From positions 123,742 to 147,741 of the forward strand of contig CAWISM010000021.1 in NCBI GenBank assembly GCA_963838725.1: a stretch of DNA of 24,000 bases, given 5' to 3'. The DNA comes from an uncultured cyanobacterium. GTDB taxonomy: Bacteria > Cyanobacteriota > Cyanobacteriia > Phormidesmidales > Phormidesmidaceae. Positions 2,819 through 24,000 of the stretch are shown here, piece by piece; position 1 is the stretch's first letter, and every line of letters begins with the position of its first letter. The position numbers were made by a program, and so were the translations under genes. The notes beneath the pieces were generated by a model. The model worked only from the letters and a program-made list of their open reading frames with translations. It did no database searches and was not told where the DNA came from.

Positions 2819-4462
2819 CTACGGTAGCCAGATCGGATGTCTGCCTGCGATATCGAGCGATGTGGGTGCTAGTGAGACTGGCGTTCCCGCTCTTCGCTCC
2901 TCCAAAGTACTAAAAAGCGGCAGCAGCCATAGCCGATGAGTCGGCTCTGTATGGTCGCTGGGACCAGCCTCTTCTGTGATGGCTTCATCAAATAAAATGG
3001 CAAGTCCATCCGGGGCCAGATCGATAGTAATCTCAGACTGCGGCGGAAGCTCTATCAGCTTCTGAGCTTCACCAGTGTCTACATTGACAGCAGCTAGATA
3101 TGAGCTAGCTCGGTAGCTTTCTTCATATACGTTGATATAGGGATCTTCGGGTGAACCCGATTCGTCAGGCGTCTCATTATCAGCCTCATTATCAGCCTCC
3201 TCGTCTGGCACCACCTGGGTGATCAAGCTGTATAACAGCTTGCCGTCTTGATCAAACTGGGCGCTAATGATTGAACCATCGGTGTCTAGTAAAGGTTTTT
3301 CCTCGCCTTGATTAGATACTAGAAACAGCGTTTGGGTAAATCGCCGCTCTGGATCGTCTTGGTTGAAGTTGACGAGCGCGGCGGAACTGCCGTCTCTAGC
3401 GATATCTAAAGTAAGACCGTAGTTGGGAAGAAAGTCGATTAGCGTCTCTGACTGTGTTCCTGACTGGCTGTCATCAGCCTGTTTCGCCTCATCTACGGGC
3501 TCTAGAGAGAGAATAGCAGTGCCCTGCCCTTGCTGAAGCAATAAGGAACTGCTGTCAGGGGCGATTCTAAAGTCTCCACCAGGCTCAGTGTCTAGCTTTC
3601 TAGGCGGCTGGCCAGCCTGCAAAACCCACTGCCCAAAGTCGGCTGGATTATTTTGACTGACGCGCTGTACGACGATGGTTTGACCATCTGGGGATAGGTC
3701 AAAGTTAAGGTTTTGATAGTCGCGGTTGTCTAGTATCAGCTCTGTGACACCGGCTTCAGCAGCATCCGGCTGCGGCCAGAGCTTCCATATAGGTCTGGCA
3801 GAGGGTGCGGCTAGTCCAGTCGTGACGCTGTAGAGCTGGGCGGTTGCTGTCCGGTTAGTGTCATCTGCGGCGCTGACGGCTGAAAACAGAATGCGATCGC
3901 GCTCTGGATACGGCAAAAAGTCTAAAACAAGCTGATCTTCTGGTGTGAGCAGCGTCTTCTTTTTCTGGGTGAGGTTGAACAGAACGAGTCGTCCGGACTG
4001 ATCGCCTTCTGCGCCAATGTAGGCAAAGACGCGATCGCGCGTCTCAAACTCACTTTCAAACGGTTCGAATCCTGCCTTGCGATTGAGCGCCTGAGCATTG
4101 GGTAGCGTGATTTCGTAGGTTTCACCATAGGGCGCAGGCATATCTAGGGTGTAGGCCATGCGGCGTCCGGCCCAGCTAAACTTGCCGGAGAGTGAAGGCT
4201 CAATGCGTAAATTCTCTTCGACGCTTTGAGGGTCCATCGGCTGGCTAAACGTCAGCAGGAACGCTACGTCATTGGTGTTGACCATTTGATTTTGCCAGGA
4301 AAACTCTCTAACGCGAGGTAGCGCCTGCGAGCCTAGCAACAGCATGACGACAATCACCACGCTCAACAGCGCCATGACAGCAACAGCAGCGCGATCAAGC
4401 GGCTGGCTAAGAAATCGACTAGACCGCTGGCTGAGCGGCTGACGTGAAGGGCGCTGAGTCAT
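2819..4462 (-). CDS. Membrane-anchored periplasmic protein with PD40/TolB-like beta-propeller repeats (conserved hypothetical)
   Basis: N-terminal anchor AAVAVMALLSVVIVVMLLLG. Recurrent PD40-like motifs LSPDGQTIV, IAPDSSSLL, IARDGSSAAL, LAPDGLAILF. Start codon overlaps the stop of the upstream gene (TAATG at 4460-4464). Confidence 0.55.
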   Translation of the reverse strand: MTQRPSRQPLSQRSSRFLSQPLDRAAVAVMALLSVVIVVMLLLGSQALPRVREFSWQNQMVNTNDVAFLLTFSQPMDPQSVEENLRIEPSLSGKFSWAGRRMAYTLDMPAPYGETYEITLPNAQALNRKAGFEPFESEFETRDRVFAYIGAEGDQSGRLVLFNLTQKKKTLLTPEDQLVLDFLPYPERDRILFSAVSAADDTNRTATAQLYSVTTGLAAPSARPIWKLWPQPDAAEAGVTELILDNRDYQNLNFDLSPDGQTIVVQRVSQNNPADFGQWVLQAGQPPRKLDTEPGGDFRIAPDSSSLLLQQGQGTAILSLEPVDEAKQADDSQSGTQSETLIDFLPNYGLTLDIARDGSSAALVNFNQDDPERRFTQTLFLVSNQGEEKPLLDTDGSIISAQFDQDGKLLYSLITQVVPDEEADNEADNETPDESGSPEDPYINVYEESYRASSYLAAVNVDTGEAQKLIELPPQSEITIDLAPDGLAILFDEAITEEAGPSDHTEPTHRLWLLPLFSTLEERRAGTPVSLAPTSLDIAGRHPIWLP

Positions 4463-8965: not shown

Positions 8966-9030
8966 TCAAGTGACGCGCCTGTACCGTAGGCCCCGCCTTC
9001 TCGAAGAGTATGCATCCGGTACAGGCTATA
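8966..9030 (-). repeat. Hairpin-forming intergenic repeat, copy 2
   Basis: tcaagtgacgcgcctgtaccg-(29 nt)-ccggtacaggctata. Arms gcctgtaccg / cggtacaggc. Lies just downstream of the DUF421 gene stop on the minus strand. Confidence 0.7.
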
Positions 9031-9068
9031 TTCCTTTTAGCTATGTTCTCCAGCCGTCGCTCTTGATT

Positions 9069-9644
9069 CTAGGCATCTTCTGGAGAGCTAGAACGCAATT
9101 TAATATTGATACTGCCGTTGGGTTCTAGGGTGGCGGTTTCTATCTGTTCTTCTATTTTCTGCCAGGAGATGGCCGTTTTGAGTGGATTGCTTGCTGAGTC
9201 TAGATCGGTGAAAGTACCTTGCGATCGCATCACAACTTCTAGATCTTGCGAGGTAAGATGAGTTTCTCTTAACACTTGTTTGTCTACCTTGCCGTTTTTA
9301 ATTAGCAGCTTGGGTCCACCTTTGATCCAGGATTCTAACCAGGCAAACCGGAACGCAGCAGACGAGAGTAGCCGATGCATTAGTACTAGGGCAAACGCAG
9401 AAAGCAAAGTAGGGAAAAACGGCGACGACCCACTGATAGCTCGGCTCAATGTTGCCCCTAGCATGATGCCTATAATCACATCAAAAGTGGCATACTTACC
9501 GGCAAAGCGGCGATCGCCTAGTGCTCTGACCATTATCAGCGCACTGATATAGACAAACACCGCTCTAGCGCACATCTGCCCCACCGAAATGTTATCCGCG
9601 CTCAGCCCTAAAAGCCCGTCAAGCAGCCGACCAAAGAGATCCAT
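9069..9644 (-). CDS. DUF421 (YetF-like) membrane protein
   Basis: N-terminal TM region RAVFVYISALIMVRALGDRRFAGKYATFDVIIGIMLGATLSRAI and a C-terminal soluble part. Pattern typical of DUF421. Confidence 0.55.
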   Translation of the reverse strand: MDLFGRLLDGLLGLSADNISVGQMCARAVFVYISALIMVRALGDRRFAGKYATFDVIIGIMLGATLSRAISGSSPFFPTLLSAFALVLMHRLLSSAAFRFAWLESWIKGGPKLLIKNGKVDKQVLRETHLTSQDLEVVMRSQGTFTDLDSASNPLKTAISWQKIEEQIETATLEPNGSINIKLRSSSPEDA

Positions 9645-9749
9645 TCACCAACCTTTCCAAGGACATTACCCCGATCAAGATACTACACATGGTTTATGGT
9701 GACTGCTCGGCAGTAGTGACATAGCGAGTCTAGCCGAACGAACTCTCGA

Positions 9750-9779
9750 CTTAATTCATTTTTCGCCTTAATTCATTTT
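9750..9779. repeat. 13-bp direct repeat x2 (cttaattcatttt, 17-bp period) at the 3' edge of the psbV paralog operon
   Basis: Identical copies at 9750-9762 and 9767-9779, 7 nt beyond the psbV paralog stop. Confidence 0.9.
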
Positions 9780-9785
9780 GAGGAT

Positions 9786-10310
9786 CTATCTTTTAGGCTT
9801 GCCGCCTGCCCACTGGTCGCCGACGATATTGGGTTGGGCCAAGATATAGCCTGCGATCGCATCTAAATCATCATCAGTCAAATCCCGCATTCGAGGAAAC
9901 AAATCCGATCTGAGGGTTGAGGGATGCAGTTCCTCGAGCGATCGCAATCCGTCGTAGGTAGTTGGATTGTTCAAGTAATCTACGATTCCTATAACGCTAT
10001 CGCGCGCAGGCGTCGCATTTGCTAAAGTCTCTAGCCCTAGATCGACGTCTGGATTAGTTTTTGAGGCTCCGTCTATGTGGCACTGAGCGCAGCTACCGTT
10101 GAACTTCCGCTGTCCTTGGAGGAATTGTTGAGTTGTTAGGGTAACTGACTCTCCGACGTCGTTGAGAGCGACGGTGCGGTTGGTAGGATTGATTTCAACG
10201 GCGATCGCATTCTGCATCACAAAAAAGGTGAGCATTGCAACTGTCAAACAGATATAGATCGATAGTGCTTTGGTCAAAATGCTTTTGAGAATGTGAATCA
10301 TGGTACTCAT
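9786..10310 (-). CDS. psbV2: Cytochrome c-550 (PsbV) paralog, PSII extrinsic subunit
   Basis: Signal peptide ending AIA/VE. Haem motif CAQCH. Matches PsbV through ANATPARDSVIGIVDYLNNPTTYDG...ELHPS...LFPRMRDLTDDDLDAIAGYIL...WAGGK. The distal His (ELHPS) is retained. I prefer ATG 10310 (GAGAG upstream, 4 nt after the nblA stop) to the track start at 10373. The paralog number is nomenclature by context. Confidence 0.85.
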   Translation of the reverse strand: MSTMIHILKSILTKALSIYICLTVAMLTFFVMQNAIAVEINPTNRTVALNDVGESVTLTTQQFLQGQRKFNGSCAQCHIDGASKTNPDVDLGLETLANATPARDSVIGIVDYLNNPTTYDGLRSLEELHPSTLRSDLFPRMRDLTDDDLDAIAGYILAQPNIVGDQWAGGKPKR

Positions 10311-10314
10311 CTCT

Positions 10315-10539
10315 CTATTGAGAAGGTTTTGATTGAAACAGAATAGATTGAGAGTATTGATCTTGAGGAACATTCGTGGCGCTCAGCAAGTGATTGATCA
10401 AATTGTCTCGAACGATAATCTGTCGCATCAGTTCAACACTGTATGATCGAGCCTGCTCTAGCGATAAGTTCTGAGCCTTGTCCTTTACTTTTTGCAGCGC
10501 TTGCTCTTGTTCTAGATTGAGTTGACCGAGGATATTCAT
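10315..10539 (-). CDS. nblA: NblA-like phycobilisome degradation adaptor (74 aa)
   Basis: LNLEQEQALQKVKDKAQNLSLEQARSYSVELMRQIIVRDNLINHLL follows the NblA pattern (LSLEQEF.L......V..LS.EQA...L.E..RQMMVKDN.I..LLK). Flanked by psbF and psbV paralogs at 23-nt and 4-nt spacing. Confidence 0.75.
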   Translation of the reverse strand: MNILGQLNLEQEQALQKVKDKAQNLSLEQARSYSVELMRQIIVRDNLINHLLSATNVPQDQYSQSILFQSKPSQ

Positions 10540-10562
10540 GTGATTTCTCTCTTAATAAGCAG

Positions 10563-10697
10563 CTACCTTTGAATGAATTGCATAGCCGCAATCGATCCTA
10601 AGAAAAACACGGTTGGAATGGCTAGCGCATGAACGGCTAGCCACCGGATAGTGAAGATCGGATAGGAAACAGGCTGTTCGCGCTCGATATTTATCAT
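10563..10697 (-). CDS. psbF2: Cytochrome b559 beta subunit (PsbF) paralog, 44 aa, missing from the ORF track (<60 aa)
   Basis: My translation of the minus strand is [44 protein letters not shown]. It is near-identical to the PsbF consensus (..[36 protein letters not shown]), including the haem-ligand His. GGAGA lies 9 nt upstream of the ATG (10707-10711, minus strand). Confidence 0.9.
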
Positions 10698-10745
10698 GAT
10701 TCGATTTCTCCAAACTAGGATGCGCTAGACTAAGGTGTGTTGGAT

Positions 10746-11582
10746 TTATGCGATCTCTGGCGTGATTCGGCTGTAGAACTGACCGAGTATTTTGACAGTC
10801 ATTGCTGGTTTAGAGCCAAAGTCTGTATCCGACGGCTGCTGACTTTCAAACGAACCCGAGATTTCGCCTGTCGACTGGTTGACCCGGTCAACTTGCAAAA
10901 CAATGTTTCCGGTTCCCACCTTGAAAGACTTGTTGTTTTGACGAGAAAAAGCCTCTCTATCGGCCTGAATCGGGATGCCAACTGCCGCATCGTAGCCAAC
11001 TGCTAGCCCTCGACCTTTGGGATCGATAAAGCTAGAGGTGCGATAGGGCGGCACATCAAAACTGCCAGCAAATCGAGTAGAGGGGCTAATAGTATCTATC
11101 GCTGCTGCTGTTTTGGCTACGAGCCCTTTGATAGTGAACAGCAAGGGGACGCGATCGCCACTAGGAATTTGAACAGTGACAGGCTGAAAGTCAAATCCCC
11201 CTTGTTCAACAAACGTTATGGCTCCATTCGGCGATTTCTGTAATTCTCCACTCACCTGGTCGAGCGTAAAACTAGAACGAGTCAGCAATTTGCCTTCCAC
11301 GAATCTGCCTGACTGCTTCTTTAGCTGACCGTTTATAGAGGGGAACGTCTCGACTAGAAACGTTTTGGGCTGTAGGCACAGCGATCTAATTTGATAGGGC
11401 TGACTGCCTTCTAAGGGAATAGCGTCCATATTAGTCCCCGTCAGCGCTGGACAATCGTTGGCTAGCCCACTGCCTCTAATGTCATCGTAGGTAAGCTCCC
11501 CTGCTACTTTGGGACTGCTACAGGCAGTGAGCAGTCCTAAAGTCAGTGCTAGAACCGTTGCGATCAAAGTCTTATGTATCAT
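10746..11582 (-). CDS. psbO2: Manganese-stabilising protein (PsbO) paralog with lipoprotein-type signal peptide
   Basis: LTYDDIRGSGLANDCPAL, CLQPKTF, GFDFQPVTVQIPSGDRVPLLFTIKGLVA, FDVPPYRTSSFIDPKGRG, STGEISGSFESQQPSDTDFG all follow PsbO. N-terminus is MIHKTLIATVLALTLGLLTAC. Confidence 0.9.
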   Translation of the reverse strand: MIHKTLIATVLALTLGLLTACSSPKVAGELTYDDIRGSGLANDCPALTGTNMDAIPLEGSQPYQIRSLCLQPKTFLVETFPSINGQLKKQSGRFVEGKLLTRSSFTLDQVSGELQKSPNGAITFVEQGGFDFQPVTVQIPSGDRVPLLFTIKGLVAKTAAAIDTISPSTRFAGSFDVPPYRTSSFIDPKGRGLAVGYDAAVGIPIQADREAFSRQNNKSFKVGTGNIVLQVDRVNQSTGEISGSFESQQPSDTDFGSKPAMTVKILGQFYSRITPEIA

Positions 11583-11670
11583 TCTTAACTCAGATAAAGA
11601 ACTTATCTATTTCTTGTGCGGCCCTGTTTCCAAGGCAGCTTCTTCTGGGCATTGAGTGAAATTTTCTAAC

Positions 11671-11698
11671 AGGTTGTTTCAGACAGGTTGTTTCAGAA
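11671..11698. repeat. Perfect 14-bp tandem direct repeat x2 (caggttgtttcaga) in the divergent psbO2/apcD5 intergenic region; candidate regulator binding site
   Basis: Copies at 11671-11684 and 11685-11698, 89-116 nt upstream of the psbO2 ATG. The core GGTTGTTT recurs upstream of the psbA paralog (22754-22761). Confidence 0.6.
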
Positions 11699-11773
11699 AG
11701 TGCCAATCGAAAATTCCACCGGAAGTGCCATTAAGCATTCATTCTGCTGTGTAGGTTATCGAAGACTTCTGAA

Positions 11774-11894
11774 GAACTTATGAAAATACGGATAAAGCCA
11801 CAGACTCGAATTATGAAGTCATCAATTCAAAGCCAAAGTTTTGAAAAGAAAGCAAATATTGTGGGTTTGAAGTCACCTAGATTTTCATAAGTTC
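11774..11894. repeat. Perfect 14-bp inverted repeat (gaacttatgaaaat / attttcataagttc) separated by 93 nt, upstream of the apc array
   Basis: Arms at 11774-11787 and 11881-11894. A partial third copy (agaacttat) lies near 11598. Confidence 0.8.
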
Positions 11895-12009
11895 TCCATC
11901 TTTGTTCTTTATAGTGACCTTAACTTCCTCACAATTGAAGTACCCTCTGTTGAAGAAACAGTTGAAGAAGTTTTGTTTTATTCCCTTTGAGTAGTGAGAA
12001 TCAAGTACT

Positions 12010-12486
12010 ATGAGCCTAGTCACAGAACTAATTTTGAGCGCAGACAGCGAAGCTCGATATCCTGCGCCCAAAGAGCTGAGAATCTTTCAAGACTTTGTAA
12101 AAACTGGAGAGCAGCGGGTTCGAATCGCCAAAGCTTTAGCAGCTAACGAGCAGAGAATTGTTCAAAACGGCAGTCAGAAGTTTTGGGAGCGCTGTCCGAA
12201 TACACCTAGCAACAGCGGCGTCGATCGGAAAACCGCATCCTGCCAGCGCGATCAGGGCTGGTACATTCGCTTAATTGCCTACTCTATATTAGCTGGCAGC
12301 GAGCGTCCGCTAGAAGATATCGGTACAGTCGGCATCAAGGAAATGTACAACAACCTGGAAATCCCGATCAGAAATATTGCAGAGTGCATGCGCTGTCTAA
12401 AAGAAGAGGCGATGGCCGTTTTGAGTGATGAAGATGCTCAAGAAGTCGCCGCCTATTTCGATCTAATTATTCAGTCTTTGTCGTAG
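12010..12486 (+). CDS. apcD5: Allophycocyanin alpha-type subunit, far-red paralog (ApcD5, formerly ApcA2, by position next to apcB2)
   Basis: MSLVTELILSADSEARYPAPKEL..., CQRDQGWYIRLIAYSILAG and YFDLIIQSLS follow ApcA/ApcD. Carries PNTPSNSG in place of the canonical VVSPGGNAYG. The bilin Cys (residue 78) is present. The paralog number comes from remembered synteny only. Confidence 0.85.
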   Translation: MSLVTELILSADSEARYPAPKELRIFQDFVKTGEQRVRIAKALAANEQRIVQNGSQKFWERCPNTPSNSGVDRKTASCQRDQGWYIRLIAYSILAGSERPLEDIGTVGIKEMYNNLEIPIRNIAECMRCLKEEAMAVLSDEDAQEVAAYFDLIIQSLS

Positions 12487-12547
12487 CGCTTGAGTGATAT
12501 TCACACACTATTTGTTTAAAACACTATTCGTTTAGGAGATTTTTCCT

Positions 12548-13033
12548 GTGCAAGATGCTATCACCACTTTGATCAACACGTCCGATGCTCAAGGCAAATA
12601 TCTAGATGATTCATCGCTAGACACACTGCAAGAATACTTTCGCAGCGGCGATCTGCGAGCGAGAGCGGCAATGACCATTAGCGCTAACGCCTCTACTATT
12701 GTCACCAAGACAGTAGCAAAGTCTCTGCTATATACCGATATTACTGGCCCTGGCGGCAATATGTACACCTGTCGCCGCTACGCCGCTTGCATTCGCGATA
12801 TGGACTTTTTCTTGCGCTATGGTACCTATGCCATGCTAGCAGGCGATGCTTCAATTCTAGATGAACGGGTTCTAAACGGATTGAAAGAAACCTACAACTC
12901 TTTGGGTGTGCCTATCGGCGCGACTATCAGGGCGGTTCAGGCGATGAAAGAAGTGGTCAACGACATGCTAGGCGCTGAAGCTGGCAAAGAGGTCGGTCAC
13001 TACTTTGATCATATCTGTTCTGGTTTGAGCTAG
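12548..13033 (+). CDS. apcB2: Allophycocyanin beta subunit, far-red paralog
   Basis: GTG start gives [20 protein letters not shown] (canonical ApcB N-terminus). [25 protein letters not shown] and [15 protein letters not shown] lies 10 nt upstream. Confidence 0.9.
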
Positions 13034-13046
13034 TCGTTGTTTCTCC

Positions 13047-13098
13047 CAGCGCTCTATTAGCTAGTGGTAGTCGATAGCGGCGGCTAGTAGAGGCGCTG
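13047..13098 (+). terminator. Strong intercistronic stem-loop after apcB2 (partial terminator or RNA-stabilising hairpin)
   Basis: ccagcgctctattagc (13047-13061) pairs with gctagtagaggcgctg (13083-13098): 15 bp including one T-G wobble pair, with one bulged G and a 21-nt loop. It begins 14 nt after the apcB2 stop and is followed by tcttatc (weak U tract). Confidence 0.45.
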
Positions 13099-13129
13099 TC
13101 TTATCAGAGCCGTTATAGGAGATTTTGTG

Positions 13130-13609
13130 ATGAGTGTGATTTCTCAGGCGATCGCAACTGCCGATCGTGAAGTTCGCTATCTCTCTAAAGGAGAGCTAGA
13201 TGCGATCAACCGTTTTTTCAACAATGGCCCCCAGCGATTGAGAATTGTTTCTATTCTCAACAGCAACGCAGAAGAAATTGTTGAAAAAGGCGCTAGGCGA
13301 TTTTGGCAGCGACATCCAATTACCCCTAGCAACAGCGACAATCCGCAATTTCAAGCATCTTGCTTGCGAGATCAGGCTTGGTTTATCCGACTGATCTCGT
13401 ATGCGGTGGCGGTCGGCGATGTCGACCCGCTAGAGGCCAGCGGCGTGAGAGGCGCTAGGGAAATGTATCTTTCTTTGGAGGTGCCGCTGAGGTCGGTGGC
13501 GCTGTGTATGCGATCGCTCAAAGAAGTCACGCTAGAGATGCTGAGCGTAGAAGATGCCGCTGAAGTGGGGCCGTACTTTGACTATCTGATTGCGGGGCTA
13601 ATGCCCTGA
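13130..13609 (+). CDS. apcD2: Allophycocyanin alpha-type subunit, far-red paralog (ApcD2 by position)
   Basis: MSVISQAIATADREVRYLSKGELD, PITPSNSD, ASCLRDQAWFIRLISYAVAVGD, YFDYLIAGL. ATG 13130 is preferred to GTG 13127 because the conserved N-terminus is MS[IV][VI]. Confidence 0.85.
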   Translation: MSVISQAIATADREVRYLSKGELDAINRFFNNGPQRLRIVSILNSNAEEIVEKGARRFWQRHPITPSNSDNPQFQASCLRDQAWFIRLISYAVAVGDVDPLEASGVRGAREMYLSLEVPLRSVALCMRSLKEVTLEMLSVEDAAEVGPYFDYLIAGLMP

Positions 13610-13655
13610 GCCTTGAATTTACTTGAATTTGGTTTACTTCGACTTGGAGACCGCT

Positions 13656-16016
13656 ATGACCGATCGAACCAATGGAGGGAGCCCGGTTGTGCATCCGCAG
13701 CAGTACCACACGGTGCCGACGGCTGTGATCAATGGCGCACATCAGCGCGATCGCTATCTTAGCCATAGCGAAACGCAGACGCTCTCGACTTTTTTAAAAA
13801 CAGGTTTGCAGCGCCTAGAAATTGCTCAAACGCTAGCCCAGCACGCTAATGAGATTGTGGCGGCTGGCGGCAAACGTATCTTTGTCGGCGGCAATCCGAT
13901 GGCTTATTTCGAGCCGCCAGAGGAGCAGGTCGGCATGCCAGGATCTGGATACTTTGTGGCAGAAGACTATCTCTCCCCGAAATCTAGAACTCACCAGCAG
14001 GGCAATGGACATAGTGTCCAAAGTTCGATACCTTCTATCGCCAACCCAGTTGCCTGGTTCAAGGGATTGTTCTTTAGCGGCAAGCCCAGCGTGCCTAACA
14101 GCTTTCAGACGATCAACATTAGGGACTATGGCAAAGTGCGGATGAAGCGCTCCATGCGCGATCTAGGCTGGTTTTTGCGATATATCACCTATGCGATTGT
14201 GGCCGGTGATACGAGTATTATCGCCGTCAATACGCGAGGACTGCGAGGCGTCATTCCTGAAGATGTAACCGTAGCAACGACAGTGGCGCTGCGAGAAATG
14301 CAGTGGAAATCACTCTCTTATTTTCCAACAGAGTCAGCCGCTGCGGCGCTAGTTCGGCGATATTTTGATGTGTTGATTGCCGACTATCAGGTAGAAAAAC
14401 CCTCCGATCGATACCGCACGGGCGTCTCAAAACACGACCAGGGCCTCAGCCTGCCAGAAAGCTATGAAGATAGTGGCAGCGCCATCCCTAGATGGGTGGT
14501 GAAGCCTACTCTGCCCGATAGCGAAAAAGAGGCGGTGATTAGAGCCGCCTATCGACAAGTTTTTGAGCAAGATATTAGCGCTCTGAATGTAGCCGAACTG
14601 GTTCAGCCTATCTCTGAGCTAAAAGGCGAGCACGGGTCGATGGAACTGTTCATTCGGCAGCTGGGCAAATCGCGCCTCTATCGGCAGTTATTTTACGAGC
14701 CCTATACAATTAGCCGAGCAATTGAGCTGGCCTGTCGTCACTTCCTCGGACGAGGGCTGAGCTGTATGGAAGAGTTTCAGCGATACTTTGAGCTAGTTGC
14801 CGATCAAGGATTCTCGGCTTTGATAGATGCATTAGTTAGCTCACAAGAGTACGCTGACTATTTTGGTGTCGAAACGGTACCGTACATACGTAGTCTAGGC
14901 GTAGAAGCTCAAGCCTGCCGTAACTGGGGGCCACAGCTAGATCTATTTAGACACAGCGCGCCGGTTCGCAAAATGCCGCAGTTTGTCACCGCCTTTGCTA
15001 GCTACCGTCAACCTTTGCCGAATCAACACCCTTACGGCATAGGCAACGATCCGCTAGAAACGCAGTTTGGCGCTATCTTTCCGCATGAGACCACCAATCC
15101 TGCGGCTCAGCCCGTTCACTTTGGCGAAGACAGTCGCCGGATTTTGGTCGGTCACGCCCACAGAAAAAGTCACGCTGAAATCTCTCAGCAGATTTTCTCT
15201 TTGAAGACACCGCCGCACGGCACGCCCAAGCAAACAAACCAGCCGCCGAGTTCTGTTCCCAGCTTTGACAGCGCTCAGCATTCTGTTGAATCAGTTATTC
15301 TGGCCGCCTATCGACAGGTGTTTGGCTGTGAGGTACTAGACAGTCAACATCATAGAGTGGCGGAAACTCAGCTCAAAGGCGGGCTGATTACCGTGCGAGA
15401 GTTTGTTCGACAGTTAGCGAAGTCTCGGGCCTTCAGACGGGCTTATTGGGAAAATCTCTATATGACAAAGGCCGCTGAAATTATCCATCGGCGACTGCTA
15501 GGACGACCCACTTACGGACGCAGAGAAACCAGCAAATACTATGATATTTGTGGTCGAAAAGGGTTCTATGCGCTAGTTGATGCGCTAATTGATAGCGATG
15601 ACTATCGTACAGCGTTTGGAGAGAATACGGTTCCCTATGAGCGCTACGTGACGCCGCGTGGATTGGCATTGCGATCGCCCAAAGGCCCGGTTGCGATATC
15701 GAAACTCAGAGATAACCCGCATACGGTTGGCGCGTACATGATGCGCTATCAGCCGCCAGAAACGACTATGCAGCCGCGATCGCACCTAGCGAATGCACAA
15801 GCAAATGGGCACTCGACGCCGACTAGTCGCGATGCCAACAATTCTCTTGAAAATCGCCAAGCCTTACCAACAGAGTCCGCGATGGCTGAAAAATCTGTTG
15901 CTTCGCGAGACTCTACTGCTTTACCAAATTCTACTGTTTCTGAAAACCCTGCGGCTTTAGAAGGCGAAGATCTGGCGATGGCCGGGGCCCGACAAGACGC
16001 TAACTCCTCAGATTAG
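13656..16016 (+). CDS. apcE2: Phycobilisome core-membrane linker ApcE, far-red paralog (two REP/linker domains, Cys-free phycobiliprotein domain)
   Basis: From ATG 13656 (GGAGA upstream): MTDRTNGGSPVVHPQQYHTVPTAVI matches the ApcE N-terminus (..ASGGS...RPQLYQTVP). PB-domain motif MRDLGWFLRYITYAIVAGD. Two Pfam00427-like REP domains, each opening with AAYRQVF (about 14.5-14.9 kb and 15.3-15.65 kb). Confidence 0.9.
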   Translation: MTDRTNGGSPVVHPQQYHTVPTAVINGAHQRDRYLSHSETQTLSTFLKTGLQRLEIAQTLAQHANEIVAAGGKRIFVGGNPMAYFEPPEEQVGMPGSGYFVAEDYLSPKSRTHQQGNGHSVQSSIPSIANPVAWFKGLFFSGKPSVPNSFQTINIRDYGKVRMKRSMRDLGWFLRYITYAIVAGDTSIIAVNTRGLRGVIPEDVTVATTVALREMQWKSLSYFPTESAAAALVRRYFDVLIADYQVEKPSDRYRTGVSKHDQGLSLPESYEDSGSAIPRWVVKPTLPDSEKEAVIRAAYRQVFEQDISALNVAELVQPISELKGEHGSMELFIRQLGKSRLYRQLFYEPYTISRAIELACRHFLGRGLSCMEEFQRYFELVADQGFSALIDALVSSQEYADYFGVETVPYIRSLGVEAQACRNWGPQLDLFRHSAPVRKMPQFVTAFASYRQPLPNQHPYGIGNDPLETQFGAIFPHETTNPAAQPVHFGEDSRRILVGHAHRKSHAEISQQIFSLKTPPHGTPKQTNQPPSSVPSFDSAQHSVESVILAAYRQVFGCEVLDSQHHRVAETQLKGGLITVREFVRQLAKSRAFRRAYWENLYMTKAAEIIHRRLLGRPTYGRRETSKYYDICGRKGFYALVDALIDSDDYRTAFGENTVPYERYVTPRGLALRSPKGPVAISKLRDNPHTVGAYMMRYQPPETTMQPRSHLANAQANGHSTPTSRDANNSLENRQALPTESAMAEKSVASRDSTALPNSTVSENPAALEGEDLAMAGARQDANSSD

Positions 16017-16203
16017 TCCTATGATTCCAACCCAAAGCAACGCTCCGGCTAGCCGAGCCCAGAATCCGCCGCTCGCTGCTGCGGCTCCTCGTTTGAGCCT
16101 AAGAGAACAACTGCGTACCAACAATCCTTTCAACTACCGACTCTGCATTAGCTGGTTCGGTGGTGTACAAATTCATCCTAAGTTTTAGACCTTTGTTGAC
16201 CTC

Positions 16204-16749
16204 ATGAGCATTGTTAAACAGATTATCTCGAATGCCGATGAAGAGCTACGCTATCCCACCCCCGGAGAGCTAGAGATGATTCGCAGCTTCTGTAAAACCG
16301 GAGCCAGCCAGATCCAGCTAGCCAAAACGTTAGAATCTCACGCTTCTACGATTGTCGAACGGGGCACTCGGAAGTTCTGGCAAATCTGTCCTAGAACGCC
16401 TAGCAACAGCGGCAGTCCTCGTAAAACTGAGGCGGCGCAGCGAGATATGAGCTGGTACATCCGCCTGGTTAGCTACTGTTTGCTAGCCGGAAACGATCAG
16501 CCGCTTAGAGAAATTGGGCTGCTAGGGATGAAGGAGCTATACACCAATATCGGCATTCCTCTAGACAACATTTTGCAGTATTTGCGCTGTCTAAAAGCGG
16601 AGGCGATCGCGCTACTTTCTGAAGCTGAGGCCGAGGCAATCATCCCCTACTTCGATCAAATTATTCAGGAGCTGGTGCGGCCCGGTCCTGCTTACTTTGG
16701 CATCAAGGATCGCAGCGTCAGTCAAAGTGCTAGACAAGCGGCGGCATAG
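16204..16749 (+). CDS. apcD3: Allophycocyanin alpha-type subunit, far-red paralog lacking the canonical bilin-binding Cys and carrying a C-terminal extension (ApcD3 by position)
   Basis: MSIVKQIISNADEELRYPTPGELE, PRTPSNSG, AAQRDMSWYIRLVSYCLLAG (Ala78, GCG at 16435-16437, where the other two alphas have Cys), YFDQIIQEL, then an extra ~20 aa VRPGPAYFGIKDRSVSQSARQAAA. Confidence 0.85.
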   Translation: MSIVKQIISNADEELRYPTPGELEMIRSFCKTGASQIQLAKTLESHASTIVERGTRKFWQICPRTPSNSGSPRKTEAAQRDMSWYIRLVSYCLLAGNDQPLREIGLLGMKELYTNIGIPLDNILQYLRCLKAEAIALLSEAEAEAIIPYFDQIIQELVRPGPAYFGIKDRSVSQSARQAAA

Positions 16750-16809
16750 TACCTAGAAGTTTACAAAATCATCTCAAAAGACCCCACAGTACATGACGAG
16801 GATACAACA

Positions 16810-17868
16810 ATGACAATTACGATGGGCTCGCTTGGCTCAGTCAAAGATAGAGTCAAACAGCTCGATGACTGGCTCAAGCGCGATCGCTTTGTTTTTATTG
16901 GCTGGTCAGGGCTGCTACTCTTTCCCTGTTCCTTTTTAGCGATCGGCGCTTGGTTTACCGGAACAACCTTTGTCACCTCTTGGTACACTCACGGCCTAGT
17001 GTCTTCTTATTTAGAAGGCTGCAATTTTCTCACCGTCGCGGTGTCCACACCAGCCGAGAGTATGGGCCATTCGCTGTTGCTGCTTTGGGGACCAGAGGCA
17101 AACGGAGACTTTGTGCGCTGGTGCCAGATTGGCGGGCTCTGGACATTTACCGCCCTGCATGGCGTGTTTGGACTAATTGGATTTATGCTCAGGCAAATTG
17201 AGATTGCTAGGCTAGTCGGGATTCGGCCTTATAACGCGATCGCCTTTTCCGCTCCAATCGCCGTCTACTGCGCCACGTTTTTGATCTATCCGCTGGGTCA
17301 ATCTAGCTGGTTTTTCGGCCCCGGCTTCGGCGTCTCTGCGATCTTCCGCTTCTTACTGTTCTTCCAAGGATTTCACAACTACACGCTGAATCCTTTTCAC
17401 ATGATGGGCGTGACCGGCGTTCTAGGCGGGGCGCTGCTCTGCGCTATCCACGGCGCGACCGTGCAAAATACGCTATTTAGAGACAACCAAAGTAAAAACA
17501 CTTTCAAAGGCTTTAGCACTACCCAGGGCGAAGAAACCTACTCCATGGTGACGGCCAATCGGTTTTGGTCGCAGATTTTTGGAATTGCCTTTTCCAACAA
17601 ACGCTGGCTGCATTTTTTCATGCTGTTTGTTCCGGTTACTGGCCTGTGGATGAGCGCTATTGGCATGGCCGGGCTCGCCTTTAATCTCAGAGCCTATGAC
17701 TTTGTCAGTCAAGAGATCAGGGCCGCTGAAGATCCTGAATTTGAAACGTTTTACACGAAAAATATTCTGTTGAATGAAGGACTGCGCGCCTGGCTCTCAG
17801 AAATGGATCAGCCTGCGAAAAAGTTTGTTTTCCCCGACGAAGTTCTGCCCCGTGGCTTTTCTGAATAA
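16810..17868 (+). CDS. psbD3: Photosystem II D2 protein, far-red paralog
   Basis: Near full-length match to D2: [97 protein letters not shown]. Confidence 0.93.
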
Positions 17869-17927
17869 ATCTCTGAATAAGAACAAACAATCCTTCGTCC
17901 ATAGTTTTCTCACCAGATCTTACTCAC

Positions 17928-19376
17928 ATGGAAACTCCACTCGAAACGATTCCAGATCTATCACTTTCTCTTCCGGCTGAAGCTAGCTCAATTTTGGCAC
18001 CTGCTGGCCCAGGCTATGACGAGGCCACTAGCGGCTATGCCTGGTGGGCCGGAAATGCTCGCCTGATTACCCCAGAGCTGACTGGGCGCTTTCTGGGTGC
18101 TCACGTCGCCCATGCTGGTCTAGTAGCGCTGTGGGCGGGCGGTATGCTGCTTTTTGAAGTCTCCCACTTTAACCTTTCCAAGCCGATGTACGAGCAGGGC
18201 TGTATCCTCATGCCCCACATTGCCACTTTGGGAATTGGGGTCGGGCAGTCGGGTGAAATTACCAGCATATTCCCCTTTTTCGCCATTGGCGTGGCCCACC
18301 TGATTGGCTCGGCAGTGCTGGGCATCGGTGGCATGTATCACGCGATCAAAGGCCCAGAAAAGCTCTACGGTTTCTTTCAGTTTGACTGGACCGATAAGGC
18401 CAAGGTCGCGCAGATTTTGGGCTTTCATATCGCGATTTTGGGCATCTTTGCCCTGCTCTTTGCGGCCAAAGCGATGTACTGGGGCGGTCTGTACGATCCT
18501 TGGGCACCTGGCGGCGGCGATGTTCGTCTGGTGACTAACCCGACGCTAGACCCGCGTATTATCTTTGGCTATTTGATCAAAAGACCCACGGGGGGAGAAG
18601 GCTGGATTGTTAGCGTCAACAACTTAGAAGACATTATCGGTGGCCATATCTGGATTGGCTGCATTTTAATTGCCGGGGGCATTTGGCATATTCTTGTTCC
18701 GCCTTTGCGCTGGACTTATAATCTCTTTCCTTGGACAGGAGAAACCTATCTCTCGCAGAGTTTGGGGAATGTCGCTGGTCAGGCGTTTATTGCAGCCGCC
18801 TTCATTTGGTTCAACAATACGGCTTATCCCAGTGTGTTCTATGGGCCGACGGTTCCAGAATCTTCGCAGGCGCAGTCTTTTGTGTTTTTGATGAGAGACC
18901 AGGGCATGGGCGCGGATGTCGCCTCGGCGCAAGGGCCAACGGGGCTGGGTAAATATTTGCAGCGATCGCCGACTGGAGAAATCATCTTTGGCGGTGAGAC
19001 CATGCGGTTTTGGGATGCGCGGGCTCCTTGGCTAGAGCCTTTACGCGGCAAGAATGGTTTGGATTTAGACAAGCTTCAGCACGACGTTCAGCCCTGGCAG
19101 CTGAGGCGGGCCGCAGAATATATGACCCACTCACCGATCGGCTCACTGAACTCTGTGGCGGGTCTGGCAACAGAATCCAATGCATTCAACTATGTTTCTC
19201 CTAGAACCTGGCTAGCCTCGGCGCACTTTATCTTTGGCTTCTTCTTTTTAGTTGGTCATCTCTGGCATGCTGGCCGAGCGAGAGCGGCAGCGGCTGGGTT
19301 TGAGACTGGACTAGATCGTGAAAATGAGCCAGTGCTGTCGATGGCACCGATTGATCCGAGCTTGCGTTCTGACTAG
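17928..19376 (+). CDS. psbC2: Photosystem II CP43 protein, far-red paralog
   Basis: [53 protein letters not shown] (Mn-cluster second-sphere E/R retained), [22 protein letters not shown]. An in-frame TGA at 17874-17876 excludes any start upstream of ATG 17928. Confidence 0.93.
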
Positions 19377-19411
19377 ATAAGAATCGATTGTTTATTTCAG
19401 GAGAAAATCCG

Positions 19412-20941
19412 ATGGGACTCCCTTGGTATCGCGTTCACACCTCTGTGCTGAACGATCCGGGTCGATTAATTGCTGTGCATATCATGCACAATGCCCTCTG
19501 CGCTGGGTTTGCCGGTTCGATGCTGCTGTTCGAGCTGGCGCTGTTTGACCCGAGTGACCCAGTCTTAAATCCGATGTGGCGACAGGGCTGTTTTTTGATG
19601 CCGTTCGTCTCTAGACTCGGCGTGGTGAATTCTTGGCAAGGCTGGAGCGTCACGGGTGAGACATTTACGAATCCAGGCTTTTGGACATTTGAGACGGTGG
19701 CGATCGCGCACATCATCTTCTCCGGTCTCTCTTTCCTTGCCGCCTGCTGGCACTGGGTCTACTGGGACGTGGCCACCTTCTTCGATCCCAAAACAGACGA
19801 ACCCGTGATCGATTTGCCCAAAGTCTTCGGCATTCACCTAACCCTAGCCGGAATTCTCTGCTTTGGCTTTGGTGCTTTCCATCTCACCGGTTTATTCGGT
19901 CCTGGCATGTGGGTGTCCGATCCGCTAGGACTCACCGGACATATCCAGGGCGTTGCCCCTGAATGGGGCGCAGCCGGATTCGACCCCCACAATCCGGGGG
20001 GCGTGGTCGCTCATCACATCGCCCTCGGCATCGTTGCCATTATCGGCGGACTGTTTCACATCTCTGTTCGACCCCCTGAATATTTATACAAAGGGCTAAG
20101 AATGGGAAACATCGAAGGCGCACTCGCCAGCGGGCTAGCCGTCTTCTTTTCAGGAGCTTTCATCGCCGCTGGGACAATGTGGTATGGCACGGCTACCACC
20201 CCCATCGAACTCTGGGGGCCGACGCGGTATCAGTGGGATCAGGGCGTTTTTCAACAGGCGATTAGCCGCCAAGTAAAAGCCAGTATCAACAATGGTAAAA
20301 GCCTCTCTGAGGCGTGGTCAGAGATTCCGACCAAACTCGCTTTTTATGACTACATCGGCAACAGTCCGGCCAAAGGCGGACTCTTTCGAGTCGGACGCAT
20401 GGTAGACGGTGACGGCCTACCCACTGGGTGGCTAGGTCATCCGGTCTTTAAAGACGGCGAAGGCAGAGAGCTGACAGTTCGTAGAATGCCAAACTTCTTT
20501 GAAAACTTTCCAGTGGTCCTATTCGACCAAGACGGCATCGTTCGCGCCGATATTCCTTTCCGCCAGGCAGAATCGAAATACGGCGTTGAACAGACAGGCG
20601 TAACCGTCAGCTTTTACGGCGGCGAGCTAGATGGACAAACGTTTAGCGATCCTAAAGACGTTAAAAAATATGCCCGTCGCGCGCAGCTAGGAGAGCCGTT
20701 CGAATTTGATCGCAGCGTCTACGACTCGGACGGTTTATTTAGAACCAGCAATCGAGGTTTCTTTGCCTTCTTCCATGTGATCTTTGGCCTGCTGTGGTTC
20801 TTTGGCCATATCTGGCACGGGCTGAGAGCGCTCTTCCAAGACGTGTTCTCTGGCATTGATCCGAGCCTCAGCACTGAGCAAGTGGAGTGGGGCTACTTCA
20901 AGAAAGTCGGTGATCCAACCTCTCAACAAACACCCGCGTAA
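19412..20941 (+). CDS. psbB2: Photosystem II CP47 protein, far-red paralog
   Basis: From ATG 19412 (AGGAG at 19399-19403): [26 protein letters not shown] is the canonical CP47 N-terminus. [26 protein letters not shown] near the C-terminus. The track start at 19388 (TTG) is rejected. Confidence 0.93.
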
Positions 20942-20988: not shown

Positions 20989-21219
20989 ATGCAACCAACT
21001 GTTTCAACAAGGCGATCAATGCAACAAAAATACGTTTCCAACAAAGCTGCGCCTTTGCAGTATCCCCTAAGAAAGCTCAACTCCGAAGCGGGCAAAGTCG
21101 TTCCTGGCTGGGGTACAGCGCCCCTAATGGGGATTATGCTAGTTGCGCTTCTACTCTTTATCCTGACGATTCTTCAGGTGTATAACGGTACCGTTGTTGT
21201 TGAAGGTGTCAATATGTAA
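20989..21219 (+). CDS. psbH2: Photosystem II PsbH paralog
   Basis: [40 protein letters not shown] follows PsbH ([20 protein letters not shown]...). Alternative start at ATG 21019 would give 66 aa. Confidence 0.85.
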
Positions 21220-21289
21220 AAAACCCGTAGAAGAAAAAACCACAAGACAAATAGAAAAGATAAGATCAGATAGTTTTGGCATGTAATTA

Positions 21290-22740: not shown

Positions 22741-22978
22741 GTTTCTACAATACGGTTGTTTACGTGAAGAACCTTATTGCAGCAAAACAAAGTGGAGATG
22801 TCATGAAGAGATGAAAGTTTTCTATTAGAAAAGCAACAAAGATAGCAAGAAAAGCCAGACAAAGGCTGTGAAGCAATTGATTGAAAGCAAATGACGGTTC
22901 TGCTCGAAGTCGTGCCTACCGCGACGCCTATAATGAATGATGTCGAATGGCTAAGGATATAGACACCGCGCACAACCT

Positions 22979-23914
22979 ATGATGACTTCCTTCATTGATT
23001 ATCTACATGCCAGCTGGCAGATGCTGAGTTCGACTGTTTCTAGACTGACGGCTCGGCAGCGCTGGGTGCTGCCGAGCTTGGTGGGAGCCGTGTTTTGGTG
23101 GAGTGCGATCGCCCATCCAGCCGCAGCCTACCAGGTCCAAGTCTTGCCGACCAATCCAGTTCAAGGCAGCACGCTATCAGTCATCGTACAAGGCGATAGT
23201 AGTAGTTCACAGCTGCCAACCGTTACTGTAGACGGTGCTACCTATACCGCTTTTCCGCTATCCGACAATCGCTATCGTGCGCTCATCCCGACTAGCCCCA
23301 ACACAAAATCCGGTCGGATGACGCTGCGAGTAGAAGGCCCTGCCGGGACTAACAATATTGCTGTGGGGATTGGCGATCGCAGCTTCAACACTCAATATAT
23401 CAACCTCTCTCCCGGCCGCGCTGGCCTAGAAGGCACCGACTACGAGTTTGACAGCCTAGATGCGCTTCGCGCCCTGCGCACACCCACCCGCTACTGGAGT
23501 GGTCCTATGGCTAGACCCAGCAATGGCCGAGTCAGCTCTGCGTACGGCAACCAGCGCTACTACAACGGTGTCTTCGCCGAAGGCTACTACCACCGAGGCG
23601 TGGACTATGCGGCTGGCAACGGTGCTCCGATCTACGCGCCTGCCGCTGGCCAAATTGCCCTAGTTGGCCGCGAGTCAGATGGCTTTGTGCTCAACGGCAA
23701 CACGCTGGGTATCGATCACGGACAGGGCGTTGTTAGTGTGATGATTCATCTCTCTGGGTTTGCGGTAAATGAAGGCGATTTTGTGCAGCAGGGTCAGCTA
23801 GTCGGCTACATGGGCGCAACTGGATTCGCGACTGGGCCAAACCTGCACTGGGGACTATTTGTCAATGAGGTGGCCGTCGATCCAGTTCCTTGGCGATATG
23901 ACGGCATCGAGTAG
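22979..23914 (+). CDS. M23 (LytM) family metallopeptidase with N-terminal signal/anchor
   Basis: HRGVDYAAGNGAPIYAPAAG, GIDHGQGVVSVMIHLS, GATGFATGPNLHWGLF (HxxxD and HxH zinc motifs). N-terminal hydrophobic segment VLPSLVGAVFWWSAIAHPAAA. Confidence 0.85.
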   Translation: MMTSFIDYLHASWQMLSSTVSRLTARQRWVLPSLVGAVFWWSAIAHPAAAYQVQVLPTNPVQGSTLSVIVQGDSSSSQLPTVTVDGATYTAFPLSDNRYRALIPTSPNTKSGRMTLRVEGPAGTNNIAVGIGDRSFNTQYINLSPGRAGLEGTDYEFDSLDALRALRTPTRYWSGPMARPSNGRVSSAYGNQRYYNGVFAEGYYHRGVDYAAGNGAPIYAPAAGQIALVGRESDGFVLNGNTLGIDHGQGVVSVMIHLSGFAVNEGDFVQQGQLVGYMGATGFATGPNLHWGLFVNEVAVDPVPWRYDGIE

Positions 23915-23940
23915 GCTCTGGAAATTTCTAGATGACTTTG

Positions 23941-23997
23941 TCTAATCAACACTGAAGTTATCTAATCAACAACTCTGTTTTATGACTCTGTTTTATG
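23941..23997. repeat. Two adjacent direct-repeat pairs at the window edge: tctaatcaaca x2 (20-bp period) and actctgttttatg x2 (tandem)
   Basis: tctaatcaaca at 23941-23951 and 23961-23971. actctgttttatg at 23972-23984 and 23985-23997. The array may continue past base 24000. Confidence 0.9.
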
Positions 23998-24000
23998 ACT

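Follow-up and report, generated by a model that had tools for sequence, protein, structure and literature searches.

The canonical NblA protein, usually 55–65 residues long, is a ClpC adaptor for phycobilisome degradation under nitrogen or sulfur starvation and in high light. We describe here a divergent nblA gene in a 24,000-nucleotide stretch of contig CAWISM010000021.1 from an uncultured cyanobacterium (this whole stretch is called the window), where it lies between paralogs of photosystem II (PSII) genes at the edge of a cluster for far-red light photoacclimation (FaRLiP). Compared with canonical members of the family (PF04485; crystal structures from Nostoc PCC 7120, entry 1OJH, S. elongatus and T. 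vulcanus), its product has the same helix-loop-helix length and register. It differs from them in the replacement of F13, K44, K49 and K53, in an added C-terminal tail and in the absence of an NCBIfam equivalog match, and its gene sits inside a PSII operon at the FaRLiP cluster instead of standing alone as a stress gene. Judged from alignment and gene order, it is a member of a distinct FaRLiP-linked NblA subfamily.

The closest described gene is the "nblA paralog" named by Gisriel et al. 2022 (PMC8689208) in the psbO1-psbF2-nblA-psbV operon of Synechococcus sp. PCC 7335, to which that paper gives a name but neither an analysis nor a function nor expression data. The window gene is its direct orthologue, 82% identical at the protein level and with like neighbours out to dapF, surE and the ArsP permease gene; the window organism is nevertheless distinct and closer to cf. 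Phormidesmis sp. LEGE 11477, its NblA has one extra C-terminal residue, and its psbV is followed by an additional DUF421 gene. The same physiology, in which more NblA in far-red light lowers phycobiliprotein, has been proposed for C. fritschii PCC 9212 (Ho and Bryant 2019, PMC6424891), where transcripts of the ordinary nblA1 and nblA2 genes rise 2–3 fold in far-red light and phycobiliprotein levels are lower. Those two genes lie outside the FaRLiP cluster and their response is largely RfpABC-independent, whereas the window gene is cluster-linked and belongs to a separate subfamily. Antonaru et al. (10.1101/2024.05.15.594131) list psbO2, psbV2 and psbF2 as accessory FaRLiP genes of Nodosilineales, thus the same operon and lineage as here, with a motif upstream of psbO in both cases. 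The word nblA is absent from the main text and supplements of that work that were searched, and, relative to its accessory-gene set, nblA is restricted to loci that stand at the edge of a split cluster and have psbV downstream of psbO on the same strand. A search of the literature pairing nblA with FaRLiP or far-red light yielded nothing beyond Gisriel et al. on the linked gene. The gene itself has therefore already been noted for PCC 7335; the subfamily character, the strict synteny at the FaRLiP edge and the common upstream box reported below are undescribed in the literature searched.

An earlier reading of the window, made from the letters alone (the sequence-only reading), had singled out a 74-codon open reading frame (ORF) as nblA-like. 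This ORF (Table 1) starts with ATG and ends with TAG at 10317–10315, and its translation is identical to the one then quoted. The proposed NblA identity is borne out by a hidden Markov model search with Pfam PF04485, which matches the product with an E-value of 4.8e-12 and 46.6 bits, against a gathering threshold of 25, over protein residues 6–52 and model positions 1–47 of 50. A search of PDB sequences returned four NblA crystal structures only, the best being 1OJH (E 5e-4), to which residues 5–52 align without gaps. The positions invariant in the family (L7, E10, Q11, Q29, Q40 and L52) are all retained, as is L51. The AlphaFold2 monomer model (mean predicted local distance difference test score, pLDDT, 85.6) has helices at 3–23 and 27–55 and a weaker helix at 59–69; the core helices score above 90, and the model predicts for the core the helix-loop-helix hairpin expected of NblA. 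A Foldseek comparison of this model with the PDB produced chance helical matches only (E >3) and is uninformative, because so short a hairpin is too simple for a fold search; we rely on the sequence evidence instead. The ORF is not a chance one, since the ratio of non-synonymous to synonymous substitution rates (dN/dS) is 0.04–0.27 between orthologues and the gene recurs at this position in 14 loci. Thus, the window gene is a true member of the NblA family and the orthologue of the paralog once named in the literature. Other reading frames at this place, namely a plus-strand ORF at 10333–10446 (37 residues) and minus-strand ORFs of 52 and 53 residues overlapping nblA and psbF2, were dismissed, no homologue or family supporting them.

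Table 1. Positions of the psbO-psbF2-nblA-psbV unit, of the upstream boxes and of the neighbouring FaRLiP genes in the window
Feature	Position	Strand	Evidence or remark
nblA paralog	10315..10539	-	Pfam PF04485, PDB NblA matches, hairpin model, dN/dS, subfamily signature
psbV paralog (cytochrome c-550), last gene of the unit	9786..10310	-	Pfam Cytochrom_C550, E 1.3e-49
psbF2 (cytochrome b559 beta paralog, 44 residues)	10563..10697	-	Pfam Cytochrom_B559, E 1.9e-18
psbO paralog (manganese-stabilising protein), first gene of the unit	10746..11582	-	Pfam MSP, E 8.8e-92; synteny
Box TTCATAAGTTCTTCA facing psbO, about 188 nucleotides upstream of the psbO ATG	11770..11784	-	candidate far-red regulatory site
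Box TTCATAAGTTCTCCA facing the apc operon, about 112 nucleotides upstream of the apc ATG at 12010	11884..11898	+	
Divergent FaRLiP operon: three apc genes, apcE2 (two REP domains), fourth apc gene, psbD3, psbC2, psbB2	12010..20941	+	Pfam; same order in PCC 7335 and LEGE 11477
psbH2	20989-21219	+	
Box TTCATGACATCTCCA, 2 mismatches, about 53 nucleotides upstream of the psbA3 ATG	22793..22807	-	

A word-indexed protein search with the window NblA found 4 close relatives only, and a full HMMER scan, covering 1.84 billion representatives and giving 52 matches, was needed to reach the subfamily together with its canonical relatives. Only four clusters of these 52 align over the full 74 residues, the others ending near residue 53. 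An alignment was built from the HMMER matches (short sequences only), further cluster members, four locus-derived NblAs and the NblA of Nostoc PCC 7120. In this alignment the NblAs linked to psbO and psbV differ at four positions from about 45 canonical representatives. At position 13 a phenylalanine that is nearly invariant in canonical proteins (two exceptions) is replaced by Q, L or R, and by Q in the window; canonical lysines at positions 44, 49 and 53 give way to R, to the non-basic residues N, A, S, E or D, and to S, T or E (S in the window), respectively. The LxLEQ, RQ, DNL and LL core is kept in the linked subfamily, together with L51. The linked proteins share moreover a conserved C-terminal tail of about 20 residues, PQxQYSQSI(L/I)FQ(S/G)K, on account of which the window protein, at 74 residues, exceeds the length usual for NblA; within the subfamily the length varies at the C-terminus from 73 to 91 residues. 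In a neighbour-joining tree of the NblA core (49 columns) the linked proteins form a clade with bootstrap support of 26 out of 50, a modest value due to the shortness of the alignment, and the clade is better backed by the common signature, tail and synteny than by this bootstrap.

The replaced residues concern regions to which functions have been ascribed. A conserved N-terminal LSLEQ(Q/E)F is said to form the ClpC-binding region; in the corresponding stretch of the window protein L7, L9, E10 and Q11 are retained and F13 is changed to Q. At the other end of the core, L51 and K53 (Nostoc 7120 numbering) are reported to mediate phycobiliprotein binding (PMC12695635, citing Karradt et al. 2008). 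With K53 lost, the substrate may differ from that of classical NblA. On the other hand, the NblA of cyanophages such as S-TIP37, which is likewise divergent, has a threonine at the K53 position and is active, still directing phycobilisome degradation (PMC12695635), so that the change in the subfamily suggests an altered and not a lost function. The phage proteins are otherwise unlike the window NblA: they are viral, serve infection, have N-terminal additions and lack the C-terminal QYSQSI tail (PMC12695635).

Such a pattern, in which the core helices are conserved, and with them probably the surface for dimerisation, and K53 (the phycobiliprotein contact), K44, K49 and F13 are systematically replaced, might also be expected of a modulator: the paralog would form heterodimers or compete with canonical NblA and in this way divert or prevent degradation, for instance so that the new far-red allophycocyanin cores are spared at the time when the visible-light antennae are taken away. 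Canonical NblA is indeed present in the same genomes, and an obligate NblA1/NblA2 heterodimer is described for Synechocystis (Baier et al. 2014, cited in PMC6424891 and PMC7966870). We consider this possibility distinctly unlikely, as the activity of the phage protein means that loss of K53 need not abolish adaptor activity; the AlphaFold2 model, a monomer, is silent on pairing.

The genomic setting of the subfamily is uniform. Loci were collected through the contexts of PsbV homologues and by scanning 185,579 species genomes with the subfamily alignment. In all 14 distinct loci obtained, nblA is flanked on one side by psbO, in some of them with psbF2 in between, and on the other by psbV, the unit diverging from the FaRLiP apc operon; in the scan, the subfamily occurs in only 10 of the 185,579 species genomes, each of which shows the psbO-(psbF2)-nblA-psbV layout. 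The nearest relatives of the window NblA come from cf. Phormidesmis sp. LEGE 11477 (89%) and from the PCC 7335 strain already mentioned, and the gene order on both sides is the same in these two genomes. The gene psbF2 separates psbO from nblA in only about half of the related loci, being absent from LEGE 11477 (L003) and from several metagenome-assembled genomes (MAGs; L005, L006, L008, L015 and L016). Being optional, it leaves nblA as the more stable member of the pair, and the distribution across loci indicates that psbF2 is gained or lost repeatedly while nblA stays. In LEGE 11477 nothing but a spacer of about 22 nucleotides lies between psbO and nblA (L003, 9979–10000).

Within the window the unit is compact, with intergenic gaps of 48, 23 and 4 nucleotides in the order psbO-psbF2-nblA-psbV. 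The spacings put forward by the sequence-only reading hold: the nblA ATG lies 23 nucleotides past the psbF2 stop, and 4 nucleotides (AGAG) separate the nblA stop from the psbV ATG at 10310, or 13 if psbV starts at 10301. The psbV start is indeed ambiguous, as the ATG at 10310 gives 174 residues and a second, conserved ATG at 10301 gives 171, the commonest length among homologues; the GAGAG stretch is better spaced for the latter. The longest psbV ORF, starting at 10373 (9786–10373) and overlapping nblA by 59 nucleotides, has no support from homologues. A scan of 9000–12100 for sigma-70 promoters and terminators detected no sigma-70-like promoter on the operon (minus) strand, and the sole terminator-like match on that strand falls inside the psbO reading frame and was judged to be due to chance. 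Given the tight gaps and the location of this only terminator-like match inside psbO, the four genes very probably form one transcription unit. That nblA stands between PSII paralogs, as had been claimed, agrees with PCC 7335, whose genome encodes at other sites a second isoform of PsbO1, of PsbV1 and of PsbF2 (PMC9843442); the PsbV of that strain is 84% identical to that of the window. The broader genomic logic of the sequence-only reading is likewise upheld, in that nblA belongs to a compact psbO-psbF2-nblA-psbV unit that runs away from the FaRLiP apc-psbD3C2B2 operon on the opposite strand.

The company of PSII genes, and not of phycobiliprotein genes, could point to an adaptor repurposed for a substrate other than the phycobilisome, delivering visible-light PSII or photosystem I subunits, or their assembly intermediates, to Clp during photosystem exchange; this would explain the place of the gene in a PSII operon, and the divergent surface residues and new tail would be in keeping with it. 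We regard it as very unlikely. PsbO and PsbV are lumenal and NblA, which has no signal peptide, is cytoplasmic by what is known of the family, so the linkage is regulatory and not physical. We also know of no precedent for a non-phycobilisome substrate among cellular NblA proteins.

Counting of nblA copies in related genomes reveals that the linked gene is an additional one. A canonical NblA of 60–61 residues coexists with the linked copy in at least four of them: in Synechococcus PCC 7335 (P0225, on the same 4.72-megabase (Mb) scaffold as the linked copy), in MAG MFD03250.bin.1.67 (P0102, on the same 1.91-Mb contig), in MAG J06627_28 (P0192) and in a 5.77-Mb genome (P0203). These coexisting copies are the best matches outside the subfamily, at 55–58% identity, which makes duplication within the lineage the simplest origin. 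The linked nblA is under purifying but somewhat relaxed selection, the dN/dS range given above comparing with 0.04–0.09 for psbO, psbV and psbF2. A decaying or non-functional remnant is essentially excluded: a dN/dS of 0.2 beside the lower values of the neighbours and the variable C-terminal length might be taken as signs of decay, but 14 loci, from lineages with saturated synonymous sites, keep the reading frame intact, core and tail motif are conserved, and dN/dS is well under 1.

The region between psbO and the apc operon carries a 15-nucleotide box in two copies, one facing each operon (Table 1), which together make an 18-nucleotide inverted repeat. The box was derived de novo and the sequence TTCAYRRGTTCTYCA was searched for, with at most 1 mismatch, in 223 kilobases comprising the window and 16 distinct loci. 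It occurs in only two settings, namely the psbO-apc intergenic region and upstream of chlF in the Leptolyngbya SIO1E4 locus (L007, 5301–5315). A copy faces each operon in every one of the 17 distinct loci (the psbO-apc regions of L001–L020 and the window) except L010. The copy with 2 mismatches upstream of psbA3 is the only other match in the window, where 3 were found against 0.5 expected, a number reached by 1 of 100 shuffles. The copies facing apc, chlF and psbA3 run on into a similar T-rich stretch, whereas for the copy facing psbO it is mainly the core that is common. These core-only and T-rich-extended forms fit the "short" and "long" motifs of Antonaru et al. (10.1101/2024.05.15.594131), who place a "short" FaRLiP motif upstream of psbO in Nodosilineales; the box may be identical with this published motif, whose sequence their text does not print. 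The shared box suggests that the nblA-containing unit has a regulator in common with bona fide FaRLiP units, and the box is itself a candidate binding site for RfpB, the FaRLiP response regulator. The same intergenic region contains, at 11663–11690 (plus strand), a 14-nucleotide tandem duplication (TTTCTAACAGGTTG / TTTCAGACAGGTTG), an insertion specific to the window with respect to the two closest genomes.

Published work bears on the regulation of this unit as well. The far-red PSII of PCC 7335 prefers PsbO1, PsbV1 and PsbF2 over PsbO2, PsbV2 and PsbF1 (PMC9843442), and the cluster-encoded PsbO and PsbV of H. hongdechloris increase in far-red light (PMC6416890). Together with the box, these observations suggest far-red co-regulation of the nblA unit. 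On this basis we put forward, with about an even chance of its being right, that the divergent NblA is made along with the far-red PSII extrinsic subunits and acts as an adaptor of phycobiliproteins to ClpC in antenna remodelling, with a specificity unlike that of the canonical, nutrient-stress NblA.

The course of events that we envisage for such a far-red adaptor is the following. The gene probably arose by duplication of a resident canonical nblA in a marine clade near Phormidesmis and Synechococcus PCC 7335 (order Nodosilineales), and the duplicate would have entered the margin of the split FaRLiP cluster, with psbO/psbF2 on one side of it and psbV on the other. A promoter in the region between the divergent psbO and apc genes most likely drives its transcription jointly with that of psbO, psbF2 and psbV. 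Because this region has its box in common with the apc, psbA3 and chlF units, which are far-red-induced, the protein would be made alongside far-red PSII and far-red allophycocyanin cores. By analogy with NblA, a helix-loop-helix dimer would bridge phycobiliproteins to ClpC-ClpP3/R and so contribute to the removal or trimming of visible-light phycobilisomes in the shift to far-red light. The replaced F13, K44, K49 and K53 and the conserved tail would confer a preference for partners or substrates unlike that of canonical NblA, which presumably stays in the genome for nutrient stress.

Several points weigh against a far-red adaptor of this kind. The window NblA has no match, at E-values up to 0.01, to the NCBIfam equivalog NF045916 (PhycobilmeDegNblA), whereas the canonical NblA of PCC 7335 (P0225) matches it at E 6e-11 and 42 bits, itself under the 100-bit cut-off. 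With both K53 and F13 replaced, the canonical mechanism may not apply unchanged. The gene is also missing from some FaRLiP clusters that possess the psbO and psbV paralogs: it is absent from Leptolyngbya SIO1E4 (L007) and from L010, where psbV lies upstream of chlF in the opposite orientation, and from L009, where psbO directly precedes psbV. It is therefore dispensable for FaRLiP in general; the arrangement is confined to one clade, and nblA is at most a lineage-specific accessory and not a core FaRLiP gene. Far-red co-regulation and the role as a ClpC adaptor are inferred, as are co-transcription of the unit and the nature of the substrate. Finally, the two psbF genes of PCC 7335 are stated to be "not modulated by FaRLiP" (PMC8689208), and PsbO1, PsbV1 and PsbF2 to be encoded outside any FaRLiP cluster (PMC9843442). 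Published statements on the far-red regulation of the psbO1-psbF2-nblA-psbV operon thus conflict with one another.

These two statements would suit an ordinary second nblA in a constitutive psbO-psbV operon, taking part in general or nutrient-stress phycobilisome turnover with no role specific to far-red light. In the same direction go the weak induction of FaRLiP genes in PCC 7335, where chlF rises 5-fold (PMC10127269), and the presence of two NblA homologues in many cyanobacteria (PMC7966870). We nevertheless judge this explanation unlikely, as nblA lies at the boundary of the FaRLiP apc operon in 14 of 14 loci, a FaRLiP-type box faces psbO, and the conserved signature substitutions and tail argue for a specialised role. 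Moreover, the psbO and psbV paralogs that are far-red-induced in H. hongdechloris (PMC6416890) are orthologous to those found here, and no NtcA consensus (GTAN8TAC) is present within or upstream of the operon, the only matches in the window being at 21283 and 23228, although a consensus scan cannot exclude regulation. Classical nutrient-stress nblA genes have a promoter of their own under NtcA, NblR or RpaB control; the spacer in front of the window nblA measures only 23 nucleotides. In sum, what the sequence-only reading observed is confirmed, and its interpretation, a direct tie between removal of white-light phycobilisomes and synthesis of far-red complexes, is partly supported.

A bolder proposal goes further, and we offer it tentatively, as something that may well prove wrong. 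The linked gene could represent the first instance of a proteolysis adaptor built into a regulon for light quality, as a dedicated, RfpB-controlled NblA subfamily whose altered surface (without F13, K44, K49 and K53 and with a new C-terminal helix) would either pick out visible-light phycobilisomes for degradation by Clp or protect far-red allophycocyanin cores against canonical NblA. If this is true, antenna exchange in far-red acclimation would be an active, programmed swap and not the outcome of dilution and transcriptional shut-off.

As a whole, the window corresponds to that half of a FaRLiP cluster which holds the PSII and allophycocyanin genes, and its source is related to Synechococcus PCC 7335 and cf. 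Phormidesmis LEGE 11477. The nblA unit is physically linked to apcD5/B2/D2/E2/D3 and to psbD3/C2/B2/H2/A3, and lies 427 base pairs from the divergent apc operon (Table 1). At the right-hand end (22741–24000) the FaRLiP genes stop with psbA3, encoded on the minus strand, and a peptidase M23 gene comes next. To the left of the nblA unit are hfq, dapF, surE and housekeeping genes. In the window alone a DUF421/YetF-domain gene (9069–9644, minus strand) separates psbV from hfq, the two being directly adjacent in PCC 7335 and LEGE 11477. No psa, chlF or rfp genes are present in the window, in line with the split cluster described for FaRLiP in Synechococcus 7335. An ORF of 55 residues (16021–16188, plus strand) separates apcE2 from the final apc gene and is also present in L001 (4308–4478, minus strand) and L003 (4559–4726, minus strand). 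The C-terminal half of its product, LRxNNPFNYRxCxSWFGGVQIHPKF, is near-identical in Synechococcus 7335 and LEGE 11477, and a search of NCBIfam gave no match; the far-red antenna operon may thus encode a small protein that has so far escaped description. Another ORF, of 547 residues (2819–4462, minus strand), stands beside DUF1980 and ArsP-permease genes at a position conserved in the same two genomes, and has no Pfam or NCBIfam match.

As to how, in FaRLiP, the visible-light antenna is removed while the far-red antenna is being built, a modest rise of ordinary nblA transcripts in one strain is the evidence so far. Should the operon prove unresponsive to far-red light, the present finding would shrink to one more paralog. 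The conserved box provides a sharper candidate for the regulator site, with RfpB as the obvious candidate, and a distinct NblA subfamily in a FaRLiP-adjacent operon gives a concrete and testable handle in the genetically tractable PCC 7335. The subfamily is, in addition, a natural experiment on the residues that set the substrate specificity of NblA.

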